Notes: generated from the sequence alone by a model not told the origin. Counted from the first letter of the stretch, positions 12,014 to 61,027 are shown. The stretch is 64,000 nucleotides of DNA from an uncultured Candidatus Saccharibacteria bacterium (GCA_964552475.1 CAZKFZ010000004.1:1-64000); one strand, 5' to 3'. Program-made: numbers and translations.

Positions 12014-13525
12014 ATGTTAGCGAATATTCAAGCAGTGAGTCATGTAGGTTTAGAAAGTCAACTAATTGAGGTGGAGGCCGATATGCACAACGGTCTACCG
12101 GCTTTTATTATTGTTGGTCTTGCTAATAAGGCAGTCGATGAAGCCAAGGAACGTGTCCGAGCTGCACTTAAAAACTCTAGACTACACATTCCACCAAGAC
12201 GTATCACTCTAAACCTCGCTCCCGCCGATCTACCTAAAAACGGTTCTGGGTTTGATCTAGCAATGGCTGTTGGCTTACTAGTAGCTAGTGGTCAGGTAGA
12301 ACCTATCCCCTCAGACTGTCTTTTCTGTGGTGAGTTAGGCCTAGACGGTACTACACGTAACGTTGCAGGGGCTTTAGCCACGGCTCAGGCAGCTACAAAA
12401 TTTGGTATAAAGAAGCTTTTTATATCTGAGAGTGTTGCAGCTCAAGCAGCGATGATTAATTCACTCGTAGTCTACCCTGTAAAGAATTTATTCGAGCTAT
12501 ACCAACATCTCTTGGGCGAAAAGCTTATCGCCCCGTATGAACGCCCCAGCTTTGAAGGAACTACAAAGAGCTCAAAGGTTGATCTTGCCGAAGTTTACGG
12601 TCAAGAACAAGCCAAGCGCGCAATCGAAATTGCAGCGGCCGGTAATCATAATATAATCATGTCTGGCCCTCCGGGGTCGGGTAAAACCTTGCTCGCCAAA
12701 GCTATAGCCGGACTCCTACCCGCTCCTAGTTATAGTGAAATGCTAGAAATAACACGCATCCATAGTCTATCTGGTTCGGCTCAGGCCGAGGTGATTACAT
12801 CTCGACCCTTTCGCAATCCACATCACACCGCTAGTAGTATTGCGCTAATTGGTGGTGGACAATGGCCTAGACCTGGAGAAATCAGTCTTGCACACCGTGG
12901 CATACTCTTTTTAGACGAATTACCAGAGTTTCCAAGGAATGTTTTAGAAGTACTAAGACAGCCACTTGAGGATGGTACCGTTACTATAAGTAGAGCATCT
13001 GCATCCTATCAGTTTCCAGCCCAATTTCTGCTAGTTGCCGCCCAAAATCCATGTCCTTGTGGTTATTCTGGCGATAGTACTCAGGTATGTAGTTGTTCAC
13101 CAGCTCAGCTCAACCGCTACCACACTAGAGTATCTGGGCCTTTACTCGATAGAATTGATCTGCAAGTGCATGTAGACAAGATCGATAGTAGTAAATTGTT
13201 AAAAGGTAAGGCGTCGGAGTCTAGTGAAGAGGTTGCAAAGAGAGTTTTAGAGGCTAGATTGGTGCAGACAAAACGCTTTAAAAATATGGGTTTAATAACA
13301 AATGACCAAATGACCAACTCTCAAATTCGAGTATTCTGTAATCTCAAGCCAGAAGTAGAAAAGCTCGCTGAAATGGCACTTAACAAAATGAACTTAAGTG
13401 CGCGTAGCTATATGAGAATATTAAAAGTCGCAAGAACAATAGCCGATCTAGATAGTAGTAAAGAGATTAGTACCGAACACTTCACCGAAGCACTTCAATA
13501 TAGACTATCTAGAGCTACAGCCTAG
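12014..13525 (+). CDS. YifB/ComM family Mg-chelatase-like AAA+ ATPase
   Basis: 503 aa. ChlI-like N-terminus (LESQLIEVEADMHNGLPAFIIVGL), Walker A GPPGSGKT, and the conserved C-terminal MNLSARSYMRILKVARTIADL. Confidence 0.85.
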   Translation: MLANIQAVSHVGLESQLIEVEADMHNGLPAFIIVGLANKAVDEAKERVRAALKNSRLHIPPRRITLNLAPADLPKNGSGFDLAMAVGLLVASGQVEPIPSDCLFCGELGLDGTTRNVAGALATAQAATKFGIKKLFISESVAAQAAMINSLVVYPVKNLFELYQHLLGEKLIAPYERPSFEGTTKSSKVDLAEVYGQEQAKRAIEIAAAGNHNIIMSGPPGSGKTLLAKAIAGLLPAPSYSEMLEITRIHSLSGSAQAEVITSRPFRNPHHTASSIALIGGGQWPRPGEISLAHRGILFLDELPEFPRNVLEVLRQPLEDGTVTISRASASYQFPAQFLLVAAQNPCPCGYSGDSTQVCSCSPAQLNRYHTRVSGPLLDRIDLQVHVDKIDSSKLLKGKASESSEEVAKRVLEARLVQTKRFKNMGLITNDQMTNSQIRVFCNLKPEVEKLAEMALNKMNLSARSYMRILKVARTIADLDSSKEISTEHFTEALQYRLSRATA

Positions 13526-53952: not shown

Positions 53953-54401
53953 AATGCTTAGTCAGTAGGCAGAGAACCTCACAGATCAAAAAACCACAAA
54001 AAGAAACTGAGAGGAGGTGCACGTGTTCGTCATTCAGAACCGTGCTACCGAGTATATAGATAGTTTCTAGGAGCAGTTGGAGCCTCTACTAGAGCCGTTA
54101 ATCTATATCTTATAGATAATGGCTCAAAAACGCTTTTACCACCCGGCATATCCGCCAGACTTTTACATATTGAGTTACCAAACTCATTCATGGGTAGACC
54201 CATGAGTATTTGTGAAAGTAAAGGAGTTAGCGACAAAAAATTGACGCTAAGGTATCAGCGCCGTAGAGTACTCTCATCTGTTCCGTCCTTAAGGACAACT
54301 AACAATGTTAGTTTGTCCGCTTTACGACCCATCTAGCCTTGCGAGCAATGCTCCTTGGCAGACGGGTCGATAGACCCCACCTTTATTAGGTGGGGTTTTT
54401 T
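53953..54401 (+). ncRNA. Candidate small/non-coding RNA transcript (promoter to terminator, roughly 450 nt) carrying only a 15-codon ORF with a strong SD
   Basis: Bounded by the consensus promoter and a strong terminator (CCCCACC-tttatta-GGTGGGG-TTTTTT at 54375-54401). No plus-strand ORF of 60 aa or more. GAGGAGG-N5-GTG opens MFVIQNRATEYIDSF (54023..54070). Confidence 0.4.
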
Positions 54402-54428: not shown

Positions 54429-54842
54429 TTATTTAGAATCTATAGAATAAGTCATGCCACATACAGCGCCAAGATCTATATCGCTGCTTATTGCTTGATT
54501 ATAAAGATCTTCTAATACAACCAATATTATATTGGTATTAGCACCAGCACTTTCTAGATAAAACCGCTCGCCAGACACATTATCGAACAACTCTATGGCT
54601 TGCAAGGGCCATTGTTTGGCTACAGAATAGGCATGGCGTAGCTCAGCCTCAGTAATTAGCCAAGCAGTTTTTTGGTGACTTTTAAGGCTCTCAAAAGTCT
54701 CGGCTACGTTGCCGGTAATATGATAATTATTGCTTTGCAAAGCACTTTTGAGGTTATCTATATTACTGTCTTTTTCATAAATAATAAGACCAACCTCGCG
54801 ACTTTGGGCTTGAGCTGTTAAAAAAGTGTGTAAATCTTGCAT
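54429..54842 (-). CDS. Hypothetical protein
   Basis: 137-aa ORF downstream of and co-oriented with the vWA gene. Confidence 0.45.
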   Translation of the reverse strand: MQDLHTFLTAQAQSREVGLIIYEKDSNIDNLKSALQSNNYHITGNVAETFESLKSHQKTAWLITEAELRHAYSVAKQWPLQAIELFDNVSGERFYLESAGANTNIILVVLEDLYNQAISSDIDLGAVCGMTYSIDSK

Positions 54843-54866: not shown

Positions 54867-56921
54867 TTAAGCTTGCTCTATAACGCGCCTTAGTACCTCT
54901 ACTAGTGCGGCTGGCAACTCAGCTACATCTTGTATTACTGAATAGTCTGGGTAGTAATCGGCTACAGAATCTGATTGTATACCGATACTAGCTAGTTTTT
55001 GGTTGGTATTATGAATTATGTTGTCTACCACCCTATGCAAATCATATTCGGGCCCATTGTGCCTGTAGCTTTCGGCTGGCTGTCCATCAGATAAAATAAC
55101 TACAATTTTCTCGGTACCAGGTTGCTGAGACAAACGTTCAGAGGTTTCTGTAAGCGCCCAACCATCGTCATTGTACCCAGATAAATCATAATCGCTTGCT
55201 TCTTCTATCATACCAGGAATAATTTCGCGACTTGGTTTACCAAACTGCTCATCAAACCCCTTGTATTTATGCAAAACTGAATTAAAACCATATATTTCAA
55301 AACGAATATTAAGCTTACTTAGCACCTCAGAAAACACTATAGCGCTCTTTAGGGCCTCTTCTACTCTATCGCCTGCCATAGAGCCAGATAAATCTACTAG
55401 TAGACTTATAGTATAGTCTTTTTGGGTGGGTAACTCTCGCCTCTCCCAGGCTTTGCTTTGTACAGCCGAAACACCCTTAGCTTTTTCGGATATCCGCTTG
55501 CCAATATTAATACGTTTACCCGTACGATAGCCACTTTTGTAGCCATGCGAAGATCTGGCAATAAATAAGTTATTAAGATCGTTATACAAGCTATCTATGA
55601 GTGGCTTGAGCTCTTTGTAGAGTTCATTATAGTAATCTAGTTGCTCGTCTTGCTCGGTTTTTTCGCTAGGCTGATCTTCTTGGTCACCCTCTTGTGAGGG
55701 CTTAACGGGCTCTATATCGGCATCGGCATCGAGAGGTTCGCCCGAGTCACTATCTGAGGCTTCGCTAATACTAAGCTTGGCTTCTAGTTGGTCGGTAATC
55801 TCTTTATCTAAATCGGCTAGGGCCTCGGCAGCCTCTTCGTGTAGCTGTTGTTTAACATCTTCTGGCAAACTAGCAATAAATTCTTGTAAGGCCTTGAGTT
55901 GCTCTGCGGATAGGTCTGAAAGTTTAATGGGTTGGTAGTAGCCTTGCTCTTTGGCAATTTCGGCGGCCTGCTGAAGCATCTCTTGCAAGTCACTTGGTAA
56001 TTCGTTAAAGCCTTCGGGGGTATTTCCGTCTACCAAATCTTTTATCATTTTGTGTAGTTGTTTGGCGGCGGCGGCATTGGCTATATCGATATCGACAAGT
56101 TTTTTAAATTCTGGCCAAATTTGGTCGGTTAATATTGCCCCACTAGCTTTGGCGTATTTATCTACCAAGGCGCTCGATCTGTCGGCCTCTTCTTTGGTAG
56201 GGTATGTCCACCACATATCTTGTAAGTATGGAGCTACTCTTGCAACATAATCTTTTATTTCTTGAGGTAGTTCTGGGTTTACCTGTATGGGTTGGCGTTG
56301 TCTATCTTGATACCAAAGACTCATATTCTCATAACTAGCTAATACATGGAGTGGTTCAAATCCCAGTTCAGACTGAGCTCTTTGTATGGCACTATGGTGC
56401 TTTTCTAGATAGTCTTTATAATAAATATCCATCCCTTCATCTAATAATCTATAATTGTCAGATAAAAAATTATTTACCCTAGGATCTTCTAAAACGCTAT
56501 ATAGCACATTTCCACCTGGCAGGTGACGCATTTCTTGCACCGACTCAATGATACGGGTTATTCGCCTATGACTGGCCTCGTGGCCAATGCTCCAGCGATT
56601 TTCTTGAGCAGGGCGCTCTAGTAGATCTTGTAAACCCACAGCTACGTAGTTTTCATTCATACTCCAATACCATTCACGGCCCGGCGCGAGTATTACTGGC
56701 ATATCGAAGTCTTTACCTATAAAGCTACTTATCACACTTAAGCTTCGCAAGCGTTCTTGCACCACCCGACGTTGAGACAAGGGCAAGCTAGCTAGCATAG
56801 CCTCAGAACGTTCTTTGTCAGCCTGGTAGGTTAGCTCAGGGTCTGGGGCGTGACCATCACGCAGTACTCCACTGGCAGGTGGTTCGGCCTTGGCAGCGTA
56901 TGTCTTTTCTATCTCACCCAA
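54867..56921 (-). CDS. vWA (MIDAS) domain protein with N-terminal HExxH motif and D/E-rich linker (CobT/NorD/midasin-tail-like architecture)
   Basis: 684 aa. SIGHEASHRRI (HExxH) near the N-terminus and an acidic stretch SEASDSDSGEPLDADADIEPVKPSQEGDQEDQPSEKTEQDEQ. C-terminal vWA with MIDAS LLVDLSGSM...SDG. GC-rich. Confidence 0.7.
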   Translation of the reverse strand: MGEIEKTYAAKAEPPASGVLRDGHAPDPELTYQADKERSEAMLASLPLSQRRVVQERLRSLSVISSFIGKDFDMPVILAPGREWYWSMNENYVAVGLQDLLERPAQENRWSIGHEASHRRITRIIESVQEMRHLPGGNVLYSVLEDPRVNNFLSDNYRLLDEGMDIYYKDYLEKHHSAIQRAQSELGFEPLHVLASYENMSLWYQDRQRQPIQVNPELPQEIKDYVARVAPYLQDMWWTYPTKEEADRSSALVDKYAKASGAILTDQIWPEFKKLVDIDIANAAAAKQLHKMIKDLVDGNTPEGFNELPSDLQEMLQQAAEIAKEQGYYQPIKLSDLSAEQLKALQEFIASLPEDVKQQLHEEAAEALADLDKEITDQLEAKLSISEASDSDSGEPLDADADIEPVKPSQEGDQEDQPSEKTEQDEQLDYYNELYKELKPLIDSLYNDLNNLFIARSSHGYKSGYRTGKRINIGKRISEKAKGVSAVQSKAWERRELPTQKDYTISLLVDLSGSMAGDRVEEALKSAIVFSEVLSKLNIRFEIYGFNSVLHKYKGFDEQFGKPSREIIPGMIEEASDYDLSGYNDDGWALTETSERLSQQPGTEKIVVILSDGQPAESYRHNGPEYDLHRVVDNIIHNTNQKLASIGIQSDSVADYYPDYSVIQDVAELPAALVEVLRRVIEQA

Positions 56922-56951
56922 AACAACAAATACCTATTATTATTTAACACC

Positions 56952-59321
56952 TCACAACTCGGCTCCCCAAGAGTGATTACGCTTGGGTTCACTATTTTGT
57001 TGGCTACTAGTGGGTCCCCAGCCTGGTGAGTGAGTGGGTGGCGGTGGTGGGTTTGGAGTAGGTGGCCGTGAAGCTGTGGGTGGAGACGATATTGGCGAGC
57101 CGGCCGGCGCAAAAGCCGAACCAGCCATTGGGGTACCGATAGGCGATGACCCGGTTGGTACTCCACTAGCAGGTGTAGAAGTAGTACCCAAACTTTCTAC
57201 AGCATTTAGGGCTTGCAATACCCAGTTGTTACCTATAGACATAGCATAGTAGTCAGGCTTATCAGCGTAGTGGTCTTCGCGCGCTTGCCAGGCTCTGGGT
57301 GAAAAACAACCACTCATGCTCTTGGCAAGCGTAGCTTCAGAAACACGTCCCTCAAGTATTTCTCTAATACCCCAAGCCCAATCGGTATCTAGGCCGGCTA
57401 AAGATATGGCAAGTGCCTCTTCATTTCTATTAGTTATAAACTCATTTCTTATATCGCTTGCAGTACTTGAGTCGTCACCAGAAATCGCCCAAGCTATGGC
57501 TGTTAGCTTCTCGCTTTCTGTAAGACCAAATAAGTTGACATCTAATTCTAGTAGTTCTAACTTTACCGCAGTGGTATTGGGGTATTTAATATAGCGCATG
57601 CCGAGTGCAAAAGCACTGGGTTTTTTACCAGCTTCTTTTAAAACCACCATTAACTCAGAAAGTCCTGGTGTTTGGCTTAGACCGGCAAGAGAAGTGATGA
57701 TAGCATTTATATCTTGTTCGTCAAAAGAGTCTATATCTGATTTTATCACTTCTATAAATTGCTCTTCACCACCATAATGCGATACCACATCGTGACCAAC
57801 CATACCATTAAAACCTGCGGAGTGTCTACTAGCCATTAATAGTCCATTAAGATCTGATTCAACGTCAGCGCCCATAACTCCTGCCAAAGACTTACCATAG
57901 GCTTTGGTGTTGCCGGACTTGTTCTTTGTATCTATTCGAATGGTAAAGGCTGTTTCCGAAGGATTGCCAGCAAGGGCGGTAAGTATAACCGGATCTTTGG
58001 CTGGCCCAGCTGGCCCAATGAATACCTGCAACTCTTGTAGGCGTTTGGCAATATATTCGGGGTCTCTTAGAGTTTCGGGGTCGCTTGGTAACTCTGCTGT
58101 GCTACTGCTACCACTTACTCCGCGCCTACGTGAGTCGCCAGTGTCTTCTACCTTGATAGTGTGTATTTTATCTATCATTTCTTGGCGTTCAGTTGGGTCG
58201 GCAAGTTTATTGGCATAGTAATACTCGAGTGCTCTGTGGACGGTTGCGTTAAGATCACCATTATAAAAATTACAAATAAACTCAGCTACTCTGTTTATTT
58301 CTTCGCGGTCGTCATAGCTTATTTTTTGAGGTTGGTCGCGTCCTATCTCACCTGCTTTGGCTTGGCTTTTTACCATAAAGTGAAAAATACGAATTTGCTC
58401 AGCCATATCGGCCATGCCAGGAATAGCACCCAGTTCTTCGCGAGTAAGAGTGCGTTCTCCGCTGTGTAGATATTTACTCTCATTTGGTTTAGCAACTTCG
58501 GTGCCTTTTTTCAGTCCAAACGTAGCATCTACATAGCCCTCCACCGACTCTTCTGGTAACTCCTCTGGTAATTTAATATAGACCCATCTTCTAAACTGGG
58601 CGGGGTCTAGAGGGTGACGCTCTGAATACTCGCTACCGTTACGACTAGGAGCGTTACCAAGAGCAACAATGCTAAGATTCTCACGCACTACCTTGAGCCG
58701 TTTAGAAGCATCTTCGGTTACACTAACCATTCCAGAGTCTTCATAAGCATCTATGACTTCGTGCAGACGTATAAGAATATCGGGGGTGGCAGCATTGAAC
58801 TCGTCCACCATTAAGATTACTTTATGGCCTTTTATTGCCTCTTCTATAGCTGCCGTAACCGGGCCATTGGCAAAAACATACTCAGGGTCTTCGGTAGAGT
58901 GACGGTCTGGGTTGGGCGCGTACTGACCCATAAGAGACGATGTATCGTCACTACCCTTCATGTTGATATAGTGAACAGACCAACCCAGCTCGTGAGCCAT
59001 TTTACGCACAGCCGAGCTCTTACCTACCGAAGTGCCAGCTTCTACAAACACAGGCTGATGCAAAGCAAAAGCTGTTGCTAGGTCGCGTTGCAATTCTTGA
59101 CTAAACTCATCTTCTACATAGCCTTCTTTCTTAAGCGGGACTTGCTCTTCTTCACCAGTACCTTTAGGTAGGCGCACGCCCAAATATTCAACATATTGGG
59201 GCTCAGCAACAGCTGCCAATTCCACAAGATGTGGCATATCTACAGACGATGGCTCACTACCTACTGGCGTAGGCTCATTTGCTACATCTGACCCACTATC
59301 ACCGAGTGCTGGTTCTGGCAC
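56952..59321 (-). CDS. MoxR-like (AAA_5-type) AAA+ ATPase with long C-terminal extension and Pro-rich tail
   Basis: 789 aa. Walker A EAGTSVGKSS, Walker B ILMVDEFNAA, sensor region ...IVALGNAP.... About 500 aa of unknown C-terminal sequence ends in PTPNPPPPPTHSPGWGP. Immediately upstream of, and co-oriented with, the vWA gene. Confidence 0.7.
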   Translation of the reverse strand: MPEPALGDSGSDVANEPTPVGSEPSSVDMPHLVELAAVAEPQYVEYLGVRLPKGTGEEEQVPLKKEGYVEDEFSQELQRDLATAFALHQPVFVEAGTSVGKSSAVRKMAHELGWSVHYINMKGSDDTSSLMGQYAPNPDRHSTEDPEYVFANGPVTAAIEEAIKGHKVILMVDEFNAATPDILIRLHEVIDAYEDSGMVSVTEDASKRLKVVRENLSIVALGNAPSRNGSEYSERHPLDPAQFRRWVYIKLPEELPEESVEGYVDATFGLKKGTEVAKPNESKYLHSGERTLTREELGAIPGMADMAEQIRIFHFMVKSQAKAGEIGRDQPQKISYDDREEINRVAEFICNFYNGDLNATVHRALEYYYANKLADPTERQEMIDKIHTIKVEDTGDSRRRGVSGSSSTAELPSDPETLRDPEYIAKRLQELQVFIGPAGPAKDPVILTALAGNPSETAFTIRIDTKNKSGNTKAYGKSLAGVMGADVESDLNGLLMASRHSAGFNGMVGHDVVSHYGGEEQFIEVIKSDIDSFDEQDINAIITSLAGLSQTPGLSELMVVLKEAGKKPSAFALGMRYIKYPNTTAVKLELLELDVNLFGLTESEKLTAIAWAISGDDSSTASDIRNEFITNRNEEALAISLAGLDTDWAWGIREILEGRVSEATLAKSMSGCFSPRAWQAREDHYADKPDYYAMSIGNNWVLQALNAVESLGTTSTPASGVPTGSSPIGTPMAGSAFAPAGSPISSPPTASRPPTPNPPPPPTHSPGWGPTSSQQNSEPKRNHSWGAEL

Positions 59322-59359: not shown

Positions 59360-60415
59360 CTATGGTTGAAAATACTGAACAATCTTGGCATTGTTGCGCT
59401 GTTCGCGTAACCAACTATCAAAATCTGGCCCTTTTATAAGAATGTGGCTAGCGCGAACTTGATCGCCGTTTCTCTCAGTAACTTTTATAATGTGGTAACC
59501 ATATTGAGTTTTTACTACTTTACTAACTTGGCCAGGTTCTAGCGCAAATGCCGCAGCCTCAAACTCTGGCACCAACTGACCTTTACCAAAGAATCCTAAG
59601 TCGCCACCATTGGCAGCACTACCGTCTCCGCTGTATTGTTTGGCTAGTGCAGCAAAATCTCCGCCAGCGTTTATTTGGGCCAATATACTTTCAGCCTGTT
59701 TTTGGGCGGGCTCGGTAAGTGCGGGGTCGCTAAGTACTTTGTCGGATAATTTTTGTCGTACTAGTTGTTGGCGAATCTTATCTTTAAAATCGTCGGTAGA
59801 CCAACCGTATAGTTTGTCTAGAGTGCGTTTTACTTGATCTATGCCACCAGCATCTTTCACTAGCTGGTTGAATTTTTCATCTACTTCTTTACCAGTAACT
59901 TTTATGCCATATTTGTTAGCTTGCTGGGTAATAATAATATTATCTTCTAACTGTTTTATAAGGTCTTGCTTGAACTGCAAAAGTTGTTGCTTACCTTCTT
60001 CTGAATTGAAGTCTTGGTTTTGAGTTTGGAAATATTTTTGGGCCGAAGTAAGCTCAAAAAGGTAGTCGTTATAAGTAGCGGTGTTCCAGATGATATTACC
60101 ATTTACGCTAGCTACTGGGTAAGGTACTACTTTGCTAGCAATTTTAACTGCTCTGTTGCCCACCTTATACTTGTAGATAAGTACACCAAAAACAGTAATA
60201 GTAATAACCAAACAGATAAGGGCAATAATGCCCACATTACGAACATTTTTCTTGTTTTTTTCTGGGTCTACACCCAACTTATTGAGTTTGTCTTTAAAAG
60301 ACATACTCTTTTGCGAGATAGCTTTTTTTGCTGCAGCTGTCTTGCTACCTTTTTTGGCTGTGGGTTTGGCTTTCTTGGGGGTTTTAGACGATTTAATATC
60401 TGGATCTTTTGGCAT
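59360..60415 (-). CDS. Parvulin-type peptidyl-prolyl isomerase (PrsA/SurA-like), membrane-anchored
   Basis: 351 aa. Lys-rich N-terminus, TM helix, SurA_N-like domain, and PpiC motif ...[17 protein letters not shown]...GYHIIKV. Confidence 0.8.
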
Positions 60416-60487: not shown

Positions 60488-61027
60488 TCACTTGTCCAAG
60501 TCGCTACGACGAATTATCTCTAGTATGGCTTGTTGCATTTTAACAGGCTTATGAACAGTTCTTAAGCGTAAGGGCTTGCTACCCGAAAGAGTCTCTATTG
60601 TAACCGTACCAAAACCCAAAAGCGAACCTTGCATACCTACTATTTTGTAATTGACATTTTGCACGTTGTTAAGAGCCAGTTCTTTGACCTCGCGACTAAA
60701 AAAGCCACGTTGTTTTACTATCATAATGCGGTGATTGGTGACTACATAAACACTATAGTACCAACCTACCCAAGTTCTTAGCCAATAAAACGCCAAGCCT
60801 ATAAGACCAATAAAGATAAACCAGTTGGCATACACTAGCCAATCATAAAAGTTAGCCGTAGCGATAGCCCAGGGTATCATTACTACCAATATAACCAACA
60901 TGCCGAAGATAAGAGCTCGGCGCATTACTATTGGATGTTGATGTTCTACCAAAATAACTTGTTCGTCATCGTGCTGGCCAGCAAAAGTGTGGCGCTTGGC
61001 TCTTGATTGTTTAGTGCTTCTTGCCAT
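60488..61027 (-). CDS. Bacterial PH-domain (bPH_2/DUF304) membrane protein
   Basis: 179 aa. Two TM helices then ...YYSVYVVTNHRIMIVKQRGFFSREVKEL... typical of YdbT-like bPH domains. Confidence 0.65.
   Translation of the reverse strand: MARSTKQSRAKRHTFAGQHDDEQVILVEHQHPIVMRRALIFGMLVILVVMIPWAIATANFYDWLVYANWFIFIGLIGLAFYWLRTWVGWYYSVYVVTNHRIMIVKQRGFFSREVKELALNNVQNVNYKIVGMQGSLLGFGTVTIETLSGSKPLRLRTVHKPVKMQQAILEIIRRSDLDK

Follow-up and report, generated by a model that had tools for sequence, protein, structure and literature searches.

The window analyzed here is a stretch of 64,000 nt from an uncultured Candidatus Saccharibacteria bacterium (GCA_964552475.1 CAZKFZ010000004.1:1-64000), and it carries a three-gene operon encoding an AAA_5 ATPase, a von Willebrand factor A (vWA) protein with a metal ion-dependent adhesion site (MIDAS), and a small protein. 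By sequence comparison, this module is a retroelement-free branch of a family that spans the Patescibacteria (candidate phyla radiation, CPR), in which the ATPase is typically the variable protein of a diversity-generating retroelement (DGR). The family of AAA-type DGR targets in CPR bacteria was already known; new here is its DGR-less, repeat-bearing branch. As to function, we give roughly even odds (a probability of about 0.5) to the module being a recognition and remodeling machine of the midasin/CobST/NorQD class with a role in conflict or sensing.

Open reading frames in the window confirmed the two adjacent genes of the original prediction, which lie co-oriented on the minus strand and 30 nt apart: the ATPase gene (module gene 1; 56952..59321, 789 aa) and the vWA gene (module gene 2; 54867..56921, 684 aa). 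The operon is completed by a third gene on the same strand (54429..54842, 137 aa), which adjoins the vWA gene in nearly all relatives; neither this gene nor the connection to retroelements had been part of that prediction. All coordinates of module features given below refer to the minus strand. The ATPase gene has a GTG start with AAGGAGG located 4 nt upstream, and the presence of tmRNA, RNase P, and tRNAs identifies the window as bacterial chromosome. A scan for promoters and terminators at the operon boundaries returned background levels only, and a hairpin at 54372-54398, 3′ of the small gene, has its T-run solely on the plus strand. Neither hydrophobic segments nor signal peptides were detected in the three module proteins or in those of nearly all relatives, which places the predicted three-protein machine in the cytoplasm as a soluble assembly.

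The ATPase carries an intact AAA_5 module of the midasin/CobS/NorQ type. Its Pfam AAA_5 match (3.7e-9) covers aa 99-233 within an AAA+ core delimited by aa ∼46-250 (58572..59186), where the previously noted Walker A (GTSVGKSS) occupies aa 95-102 and Walker B (DEFN) aa 173-176. Residues G96, S98, G100, and K101 of the former and D173 and E174 of the latter are invariant among ATPase homologs (alignment A4), and profile searches against the PDB retrieved midasin (1.2e-30), CobS (2.5e-5), and NorQ (1e-4). The core is followed by a conserved, family-specific extension (aa ∼251-400; 58122..58571) with invariant residues F313, H314, DQPQ (329-332), D337, R339, E341, R344, Y367, Y369, and K372 in the same alignment. 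The ratio of nonsynonymous to synonymous substitution rates (dN/dS) in this extension is 0.026 when compared with L009, the window's closest relative in public genomes, which is also labeled Candidatus Saccharibacteria. Further downstream, the protein continues into a helical-repeat region and ends in the poly-Pro tail noted originally, a Pro/Ser-rich low-complexity segment (aa ∼715-789; 56955..57179) that is restricted to the window and its closest relative (alignment A4) and is rich in indels (31 gap columns versus L009).

Homology searches yielded 42 full-length homologs of the vWA protein and, once the low-complexity tail had been removed from the query, 75 of the ATPase, and all named homologs of both proteins belong to Patescibacteria/CPR. 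Gene neighborhoods revealed a constant trio made of the vWA protein, a protein of ∼135 aa, and the ATPase. A locus scan restricted to one genome per species delivered 80 loci distributed over Saccharibacteria, Paceibacteria, Peribacteria, Berkelbacteria, Magasanikbacteria, Falkowbacteria, Zambryskibacteria, and other groups. A set of third-party metagenome-assembled genome records that carry the otherwise CPR-specific module (L015, L025, L034, L035, L037, L038, L043, L052, L060, L064, L077, and L088) bear other labels, several of them "uncultured Gammaproteobacteria" or "Pseudomonadales" and one each Bdellovibrionales, Geobacteraceae, Anaerolineaceae, and Micrarchaeota; these non-CPR labels are probably wrong. 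Cultured phages matched the vWA part alone, at about 25% identity and with no full-length homolog, and IMG/VR contributed 4 loci only, each with a reverse transcriptase (RT) nearby. A phage origin of the module was therefore rejected, and this distribution fits a cellular CPR element.

In these relatives, the usual gene order is vWA, small, and AAA, followed by an Avd gene on the opposite strand and an RT gene. A DGR (Avd, TR, and RT) comes after the ATPase gene, with the RT within 6 kb, in 47 of the 57 usual-order loci with enough flanking DNA. This is a nonredundant count, in which 10 loci have no RT despite at least 4.5 kb of following sequence and 20 are too short, and the window, with its own order (AAA, vWA, small), stands outside the tally. 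The signature of DGR-mediated diversification is seen in L003, where the final 120 nt of the gene for the ATPase recur 456 nt downstream and all mismatches fall at adenines of the downstream copy. A second locus, L004, has two targets of this template repeat/variable repeat (TR/VR) type, and a systematic scan found repeats of 66 to 126 nt with adenine-only mismatches in most RT-bearing loci. These repeats mostly end no more than 60 nt from the ATPase stop codon, although some are on a stand-alone paralog of the C-terminal domain (C-domain). In typical relatives, the variable protein of the DGR is thus the ATPase. It shares aa ∼40-400 with the window ATPase, as the sole common part, at 40 to 45% identity over ∼370 aa (tblastn E values of 1e-77 to 1e-96).

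This placement agrees with what has been reported on CPR retroelements. DGRs are by far the commonest RTs of CPR bacteria (PMC8632793), their commonest target (PMC10907252, citing Paul et al. 2017) combines an AAA ATPase with a CLec variable domain, and targets of UVR4/category g1 match midasin (Wu et al. 2018, PMC5758913). The job of soluble CPR DGR targets is still open (PMC8144416). An assignment of the DGR-type C-domain to CLec by sequence was tried and abandoned, with no PDB match. Many DGR-type loci (L004, L006, L012, L023, L036, L039, L041, L042, L084, and L086) hold two to three targets per template, i.e., the ATPase plus stand-alone C-domain paralogs of ∼320 to 350 aa, and the small-plus-AAA unit is duplicated in L039. 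The surroundings of the module and its DGR in L003 (1-9840) and L006 (1-7416) resemble defense islands, with DNA methylases, a BpuJI_N/NOV_C protein, a UvrD helicase, DUF2779, a trypsin-like protease, DUF4238, and a ParB-methylase.

The window departs from this scheme at the C-domain of its ATPase. Where the relatives have the DGR variable domain, the window protein has a helical-repeat region (aa ∼440-710; 57192..58004) built of degenerate copies of a ∼33-aa "SLAGLDSxxAWxxR" repeat. An hhalign comparison of the two C-domain types revealed no homology (probability 0.1), which indicates, at the level of sequence, an exchange by domain swap rather than a decayed VR. Similar repeats occur in L077 and L079, two loci that lack an RT and are nested within the DGR clade, and this nesting suggests that DGR-variable domain and repeat array have been swapped more than once. 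The L079 ATPase (12749-∼16200), of the same family and also with no RT nearby, is 1159 aa long with about 15 helical repeats. In an exhaustive HMMER search, the C-terminal 345 aa of the window ATPase matched 151 proteins at E values of up to 1e-3, with 3 to 10 stretches in each. The matched proteins consist of tandem ∼33-aa "SLAGLDSDRAWxxRE" units and form a large, unnamed family (P0052-P0199; e.g., P0055, P0056, P0058, and P0060), some of about 350 aa and others, which contain transglutaminase-like domains, of 1,000 to 2,400 aa; the repeat has no model in Pfam or NCBIfam. A stand-alone repeat protein is encoded on a CPR contig (L093, 5001-6041) directly after the type IV secretion system (T4SS) genes for PrgI and TraC-like and VirB4-like proteins. 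Comparison with L009 revealed markedly different rates along the ATPase, with 75% identity and a dN/dS of 0.21 in the repeat region versus 98.5% and 0.011 in the core, and dN in the former is about 25 times that in the latter. The part that is hypermutated in the relatives is thus the fastest-evolving part of the window ATPase.

In a neighbor-joining (NJ) tree of the vWA protein, the window, L009, L001, and L007 constitute one clade, characterized by the order AAA, vWA, small and by the lack of a nearby RT. Within the 64-kb window, tblastn with four RTs and two Avds as queries returned nothing below an E value of 0.6, and a search of both strands for TR-like repeats of at least 50 nt with A mismatches to the module was likewise empty, while recovering the L003 positive control. 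A hidden DGR in the window was rejected on these two results. L001 preserves the local order of the window (M16 peptidase, NDK, bPH-domain protein, peptidyl-prolyl isomerase [PPIase], AAA, vWA, small), with flanking proteins that are 46 to 72% identical and module proteins that are 37 to 40% identical. Synonymous divergence (dS) from L009 is similar across the region (0.48 to 0.98), with the module behaving like the flanking genes, and all three module genes are under purifying selection (dN/dS of 0.11 to 0.15 versus L009). Conserved synteny, similar dS, and purifying selection together argue for vertical inheritance of genes that, judging from these patterns, are functional. The original prediction had described a GC-rich island and read its composition as a sign of horizontal transfer. 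The bulk GC of the module genes is indeed higher (0.44 to 0.47 versus about 0.38 to 0.40 elsewhere), but GC at third codon positions (GC3; 0.366 and 0.377 in the ATPase and vWA genes) is at the level of the neighboring genes, so the excess arises from amino acid composition. Horizontal transfer is thus not supported, and recent transfer was rejected in view of host-like GC3, the synteny conserved with L001 and L009, and dS like that of the flanking genes.

Immediately upstream of the ATPase gene, at a distance of 38 nt and in the same orientation, lies the gene for a membrane-anchored, SurA/PrsA-like PPIase (window 59360-60415, minus strand), an arrangement found likewise in L001 and L009. The next gene encodes the bPH-domain protein (60488-61027, minus strand). 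Between the window and L009, identity reaches 99.4% for the PPIase but only 67% for the bPH-domain protein. A second MoxR-clade ATPase, encoded at window 12014-13525 (plus strand), is of the YifB/ComM type (Mg_chelatase, 9e-94) and unrelated to the module.

The HEASH motif, acidic linker, and MIDAS vWA domain that had been recognized in the product of module gene 2 were all substantiated by Pfam, alignment, and structure prediction. Pfam matched CobT_C (1.3e-18; also in 25 of 25 homologs) and VWA (1.2e-5), and an AlphaFold2 model of the full protein reached a mean predicted local distance difference test (pLDDT) score of 79.6. The N-terminal half is a putative zincin-like helical domain (aa ∼30-380; 55782..56834) that contains the HEASH (HExxH) motif at aa 114-118 (56568..56582). 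Residues H114, E115, and H118 show no variation across 25 homologs (38 in alignment A7) of 31 to 40% identity, and R109, R120, E145, D146, R148, N151, and F152 are likewise invariant in the 25. Modeled alone, the N-terminal 350 aa yielded a pLDDT of 91.7 and a predicted template modeling score (pTM) of 0.89, with the HExxH helix coming after a three-stranded sheet. The invariance of H114, E115, H118, E145, and D146 and the modeled fold make a zincin-like metal site at the HExxH likely, in which the invariant acidic pair E145/D146, 27 residues past the motif, could provide the third ligand. In line with the potential zinc peptidase first proposed, the motif is invariant, the model is confident, and the most probable folds retrieved by Foldseek are zinc peptidases (the minigluzincins selecase and jannalysin), but these scores are weak and none is significant, and no Pfam peptidase family matched the HExxH domain in any of 25 members at E values of up to 5. 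The predicted domain shares with M48 and minigluzincin peptidases (BepA, Ste24/ZMPSTE24, selecase, jannalysin) the HExxH helix after a small β-sheet, and differs from them in its size (about 350 aa), its many extra helices, its solubility, and its fusion to a vWA domain.

Between the two halves lies the D/E-rich linker (aa ∼381-420; 55662..55781), which is disordered in the model (pLDDT below 50) and varies in length and sequence across the family. It leads to a long helix and the vWA domain (aa ∼423-684; 54870..55655) with a complete MIDAS site, whose DLSGS motif maps to 55380-55394 and whose residues D510-x-S512-x-S514, D585/D586, and D612 are invariant. In profile comparisons with the PDB, the vWA domain retrieved CobT (1.1e-19), midasin (2.2e-10), and NorD (5.8e-5), and both sequence and predicted fold placed it nearest to these three proteins, with a fold of the midasin/NorD type. 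Similarity to CobT is confined to this domain; the N-terminal half contains no CobT N-domain. No prior description of the MIDAS/zincin partner was found in the literature surveyed, to which Paul et al. (2017) did not belong.

The third protein is soluble and has no Pfam or PDB relative. It is recognizable across the family by the motif YDFxxQYPTGQxExFD, which is degenerate in the window as AYSVAKQWPLQAIELFD (alignment A5), and its gene evolves with a dN/dS of 0.15 versus L009. In the subclade L054-L076 (e.g., L055, L061, L063, L065, L069-L072, and L076), tblastn did not detect the small protein, although the genes for the vWA protein and the ATPase lie ∼600 nt apart; this gap may hold a very divergent or replaced third component.

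Among characterized systems, midasin (Rea1/MDN1), CobS/CobT, and NorQ/NorD are the nearest to the window proteins in pairing an AAA_5 ATPase with a MIDAS vWA domain, and they share with them the acidic linker ahead of that domain. Unlike midasin, with its six fused AAA modules, the window ATPase has one per chain, and unlike all three systems it bears a C-terminal domain to which we ascribe a role in recognition. The HExxH domain at the N terminus of its partner has no sequence match in CobT or NorD, and the annotated flanks of the module offer no client context of the CobN or NorB type. Compared with the CPR DGR variable proteins, the window module has a homologous ATPase N-module, the same vWA and small neighbors, and a host in the same phylum. 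It differs from them in lacking VR, TR, and RT/Avd within 64 kb, in its gene order (AAA, vWA, small versus vWA, small, AAA), and in its C-domain, an unrelated helical-repeat array instead of the variable type.

A broader parallel is offered by MoxR-vWA ternary systems linked to DGRs, which Kaur et al. (2020, PMC7159879) proposed to be conflict systems and to which the Esr pathway adds a MoxR-vWA threat sensor with experimental support (PMC13622651). The test for association with multicellularity in the former study left CPR out (PMC7159879). The likeness consists in the combination of a MoxR-clade ATPase with a vWA protein and a conserved third component, and, in relatives of the module, in frequent DGR coupling that diversifies a ligand-binding domain. 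The third components of the known systems, by contrast, are VMAP, iSTAND, FtsH, or β-propeller proteins, to which the ∼135-aa protein has no detectable similarity and for which it is far too small; the diversified domain is on their vWA protein, whereas the module has it on the ATPase; and the putative effector of the module is instead the zincin-like domain of its vWA protein. As read from the sequence, the window ATPase also lacks the N-terminal WxhapG/PsWRxa motifs of VMAP systems.

By analogy with these machines, the ATPase would form a ring that recognizes a protein ligand through its C-terminal domains. The vWA protein might dock onto this ring and grip a partner through its MIDAS site, and ATP hydrolysis would then remodel the bound complex. 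The HExxH domain would be the effector, probably cleaving either the captured protein or a cellular target, and the form found in the window would have a fixed specificity for a single, slowly changing class of ligands. Since the relatives hypermutate the recognition domain, the targets would most likely be variable proteins, either nonself or host derived. We propose tentatively, at odds well short of even, that vWA, small protein, and AAA constitute a cytoplasmic receptor-effector machine throughout the Patescibacteria, in which the ring presents a recognition domain, DGR-hypermutated or, as in the window, a germline-fixed helical-repeat array, and a zincin protease tethered through the MIDAS domain attacks whatever is bound.

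The role in conflict or sensing that we favor for the module is drawn from the hypermutation in relatives, the analogous DGR-coupled MoxR-vWA systems, and the restriction-modification neighbors in L003 and L006. Support for the conflict system suggested originally is thus indirect, through the ATPase being a DGR target in most relatives, while the VMAP motifs are absent and none of the three proteins had a match in PADLOC-DB, on which grounds a known defense system was rejected. The missing PADLOC match is one of several points that tell against this role. No retroelement accompanies the module in the window clade, and the vWA NJ tree was midpoint rooted and so sets no direction for DGR loss versus gain; the repeat domain has a dN/dS well under 1; ring formation, vWA docking, and what the small protein would do are argued by analogy; and the family is known from sequences and predicted models. 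The module also sits among housekeeping genes (M16 peptidase, NDK, and PPIase) in conserved synteny, a setting that an ordinary chaperone would fit too. Such a housekeeping MoxR-vWA assembly chaperone, comparable to NorQ/NorD, CoxD/CoxE, or CbbQ/CbbO, would mature or metallate one fixed client in the Saccharibacteria lineage concerned, and its HExxH domain would be a metal-handling or structural module and no protease. We regard this main rival as rather unlikely, even though the nearest solved relatives, CobST and NorQD, are metal-insertion machines, the housekeeping position is kept between genomes whose module proteins are only 37 to 40% identical, all three genes are under purifying selection, and the missing retroelement and PADLOC match also suit it. 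No conserved client gene adjoins the module, the flanks of which differ among L001, L007, and DGR-type loci, and CPR genomes are not known to have the client pathways of chaperones of this kind. Moreover, a fixed client would be expected neither with the hypermutated C-domain of most relatives nor with a C-domain that outpaces the core about 25-fold in dN.

The other two explanations would give the module a metabolic or an extracellular task. Surface exposure is improbable: as an exported adhesion or host-interaction factor of an epibiont, the module would bind the host cell with its vWA and repeat domains. Among adhesion modules, vWA domains as well as helical repeats are common, the DGR targets of cellular organisms are often surface proteins, with a role in host interaction suggested for CPR (PMC8632793, PMC8144416), and a repeat protein stands beside T4SS genes in L093. 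However, the lack of signal peptides and hydrophobic segments, in the window as in nearly all relatives, the requirement of an AAA+ ATPase for cytoplasmic ATP, and a vWA domain of the intracellular midasin/CobT/NorD type rather than the adhesin type all speak against export. That the two genes encode a true aerobic cobaltochelatase (CobS/CobT), or an auxiliary pair like the CobS/CobT of phages, with a task in cobalamin metabolism is even more improbable and effectively refuted. This reading is suggested by the CobT_C match, by CobT as the best PDB match of the vWA domain, by the label "cobalamin biosynthesis protein CobT" that some sources attach to homologs, and by phage "CobT" proteins ∼25% identical over the vWA part. 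Nevertheless, the scores against the NCBIfam equivalogs (17.3 versus a cutoff of 558.55 for TIGR01650, CobS; 34.4 versus 759.05 for TIGR01651, CobT) are far too low, the match is limited to the vWA domain of a protein whose N-terminal half is a different, HExxH-bearing domain, and cultured phages have no full-length homolog. Neither CobN nor other cobalamin genes turned up among the examined ORFs of the window or in the flanks annotated for five relatives (L001, L003, L004, L006, and L007), and the gene neighborhoods contain no denitrification genes nearby. True CobS/CobT was rejected on cutoffs and gene context, which bears out the original remark that a cobalamin or denitrification context is not obvious.

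A link to the major vault protein (MVP), by comparison with the vault accessory proteins vPARP (vWA) and TEP1 (NTPase), had also been raised and was not supported, as no MVP homolog was found in 92 related loci (1.46 Mb in total). The window itself encodes an MVP homolog of 862 aa at 1994-4582 (minus strand; MVP_shoulder, 4.7e-28; Vault_3, 4.9e-9; Band_7), in a stretch of about 51% GC located 50 kb from the module. Overall, what the original prediction had observed was confirmed, and its interpretation was partly supported.

For the CPR DGR-target ATPases as a class, the constant MIDAS-vWA/HExxH partner and the small protein represent a candidate effector and a testable mechanism. The retroelement-free branch, with its fixed specificity, would be easier to study, and it occurs in Saccharibacteria, the sole CPR group with cultivated, genetically tractable members. 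If the proposed receptor-effector machine is real, it would account for the job of the most abundant class of CPR DGR targets and would endow these genome-reduced epibionts with an anticipatory, antibody-like form of intracellular surveillance or with a means of targeting host proteins.

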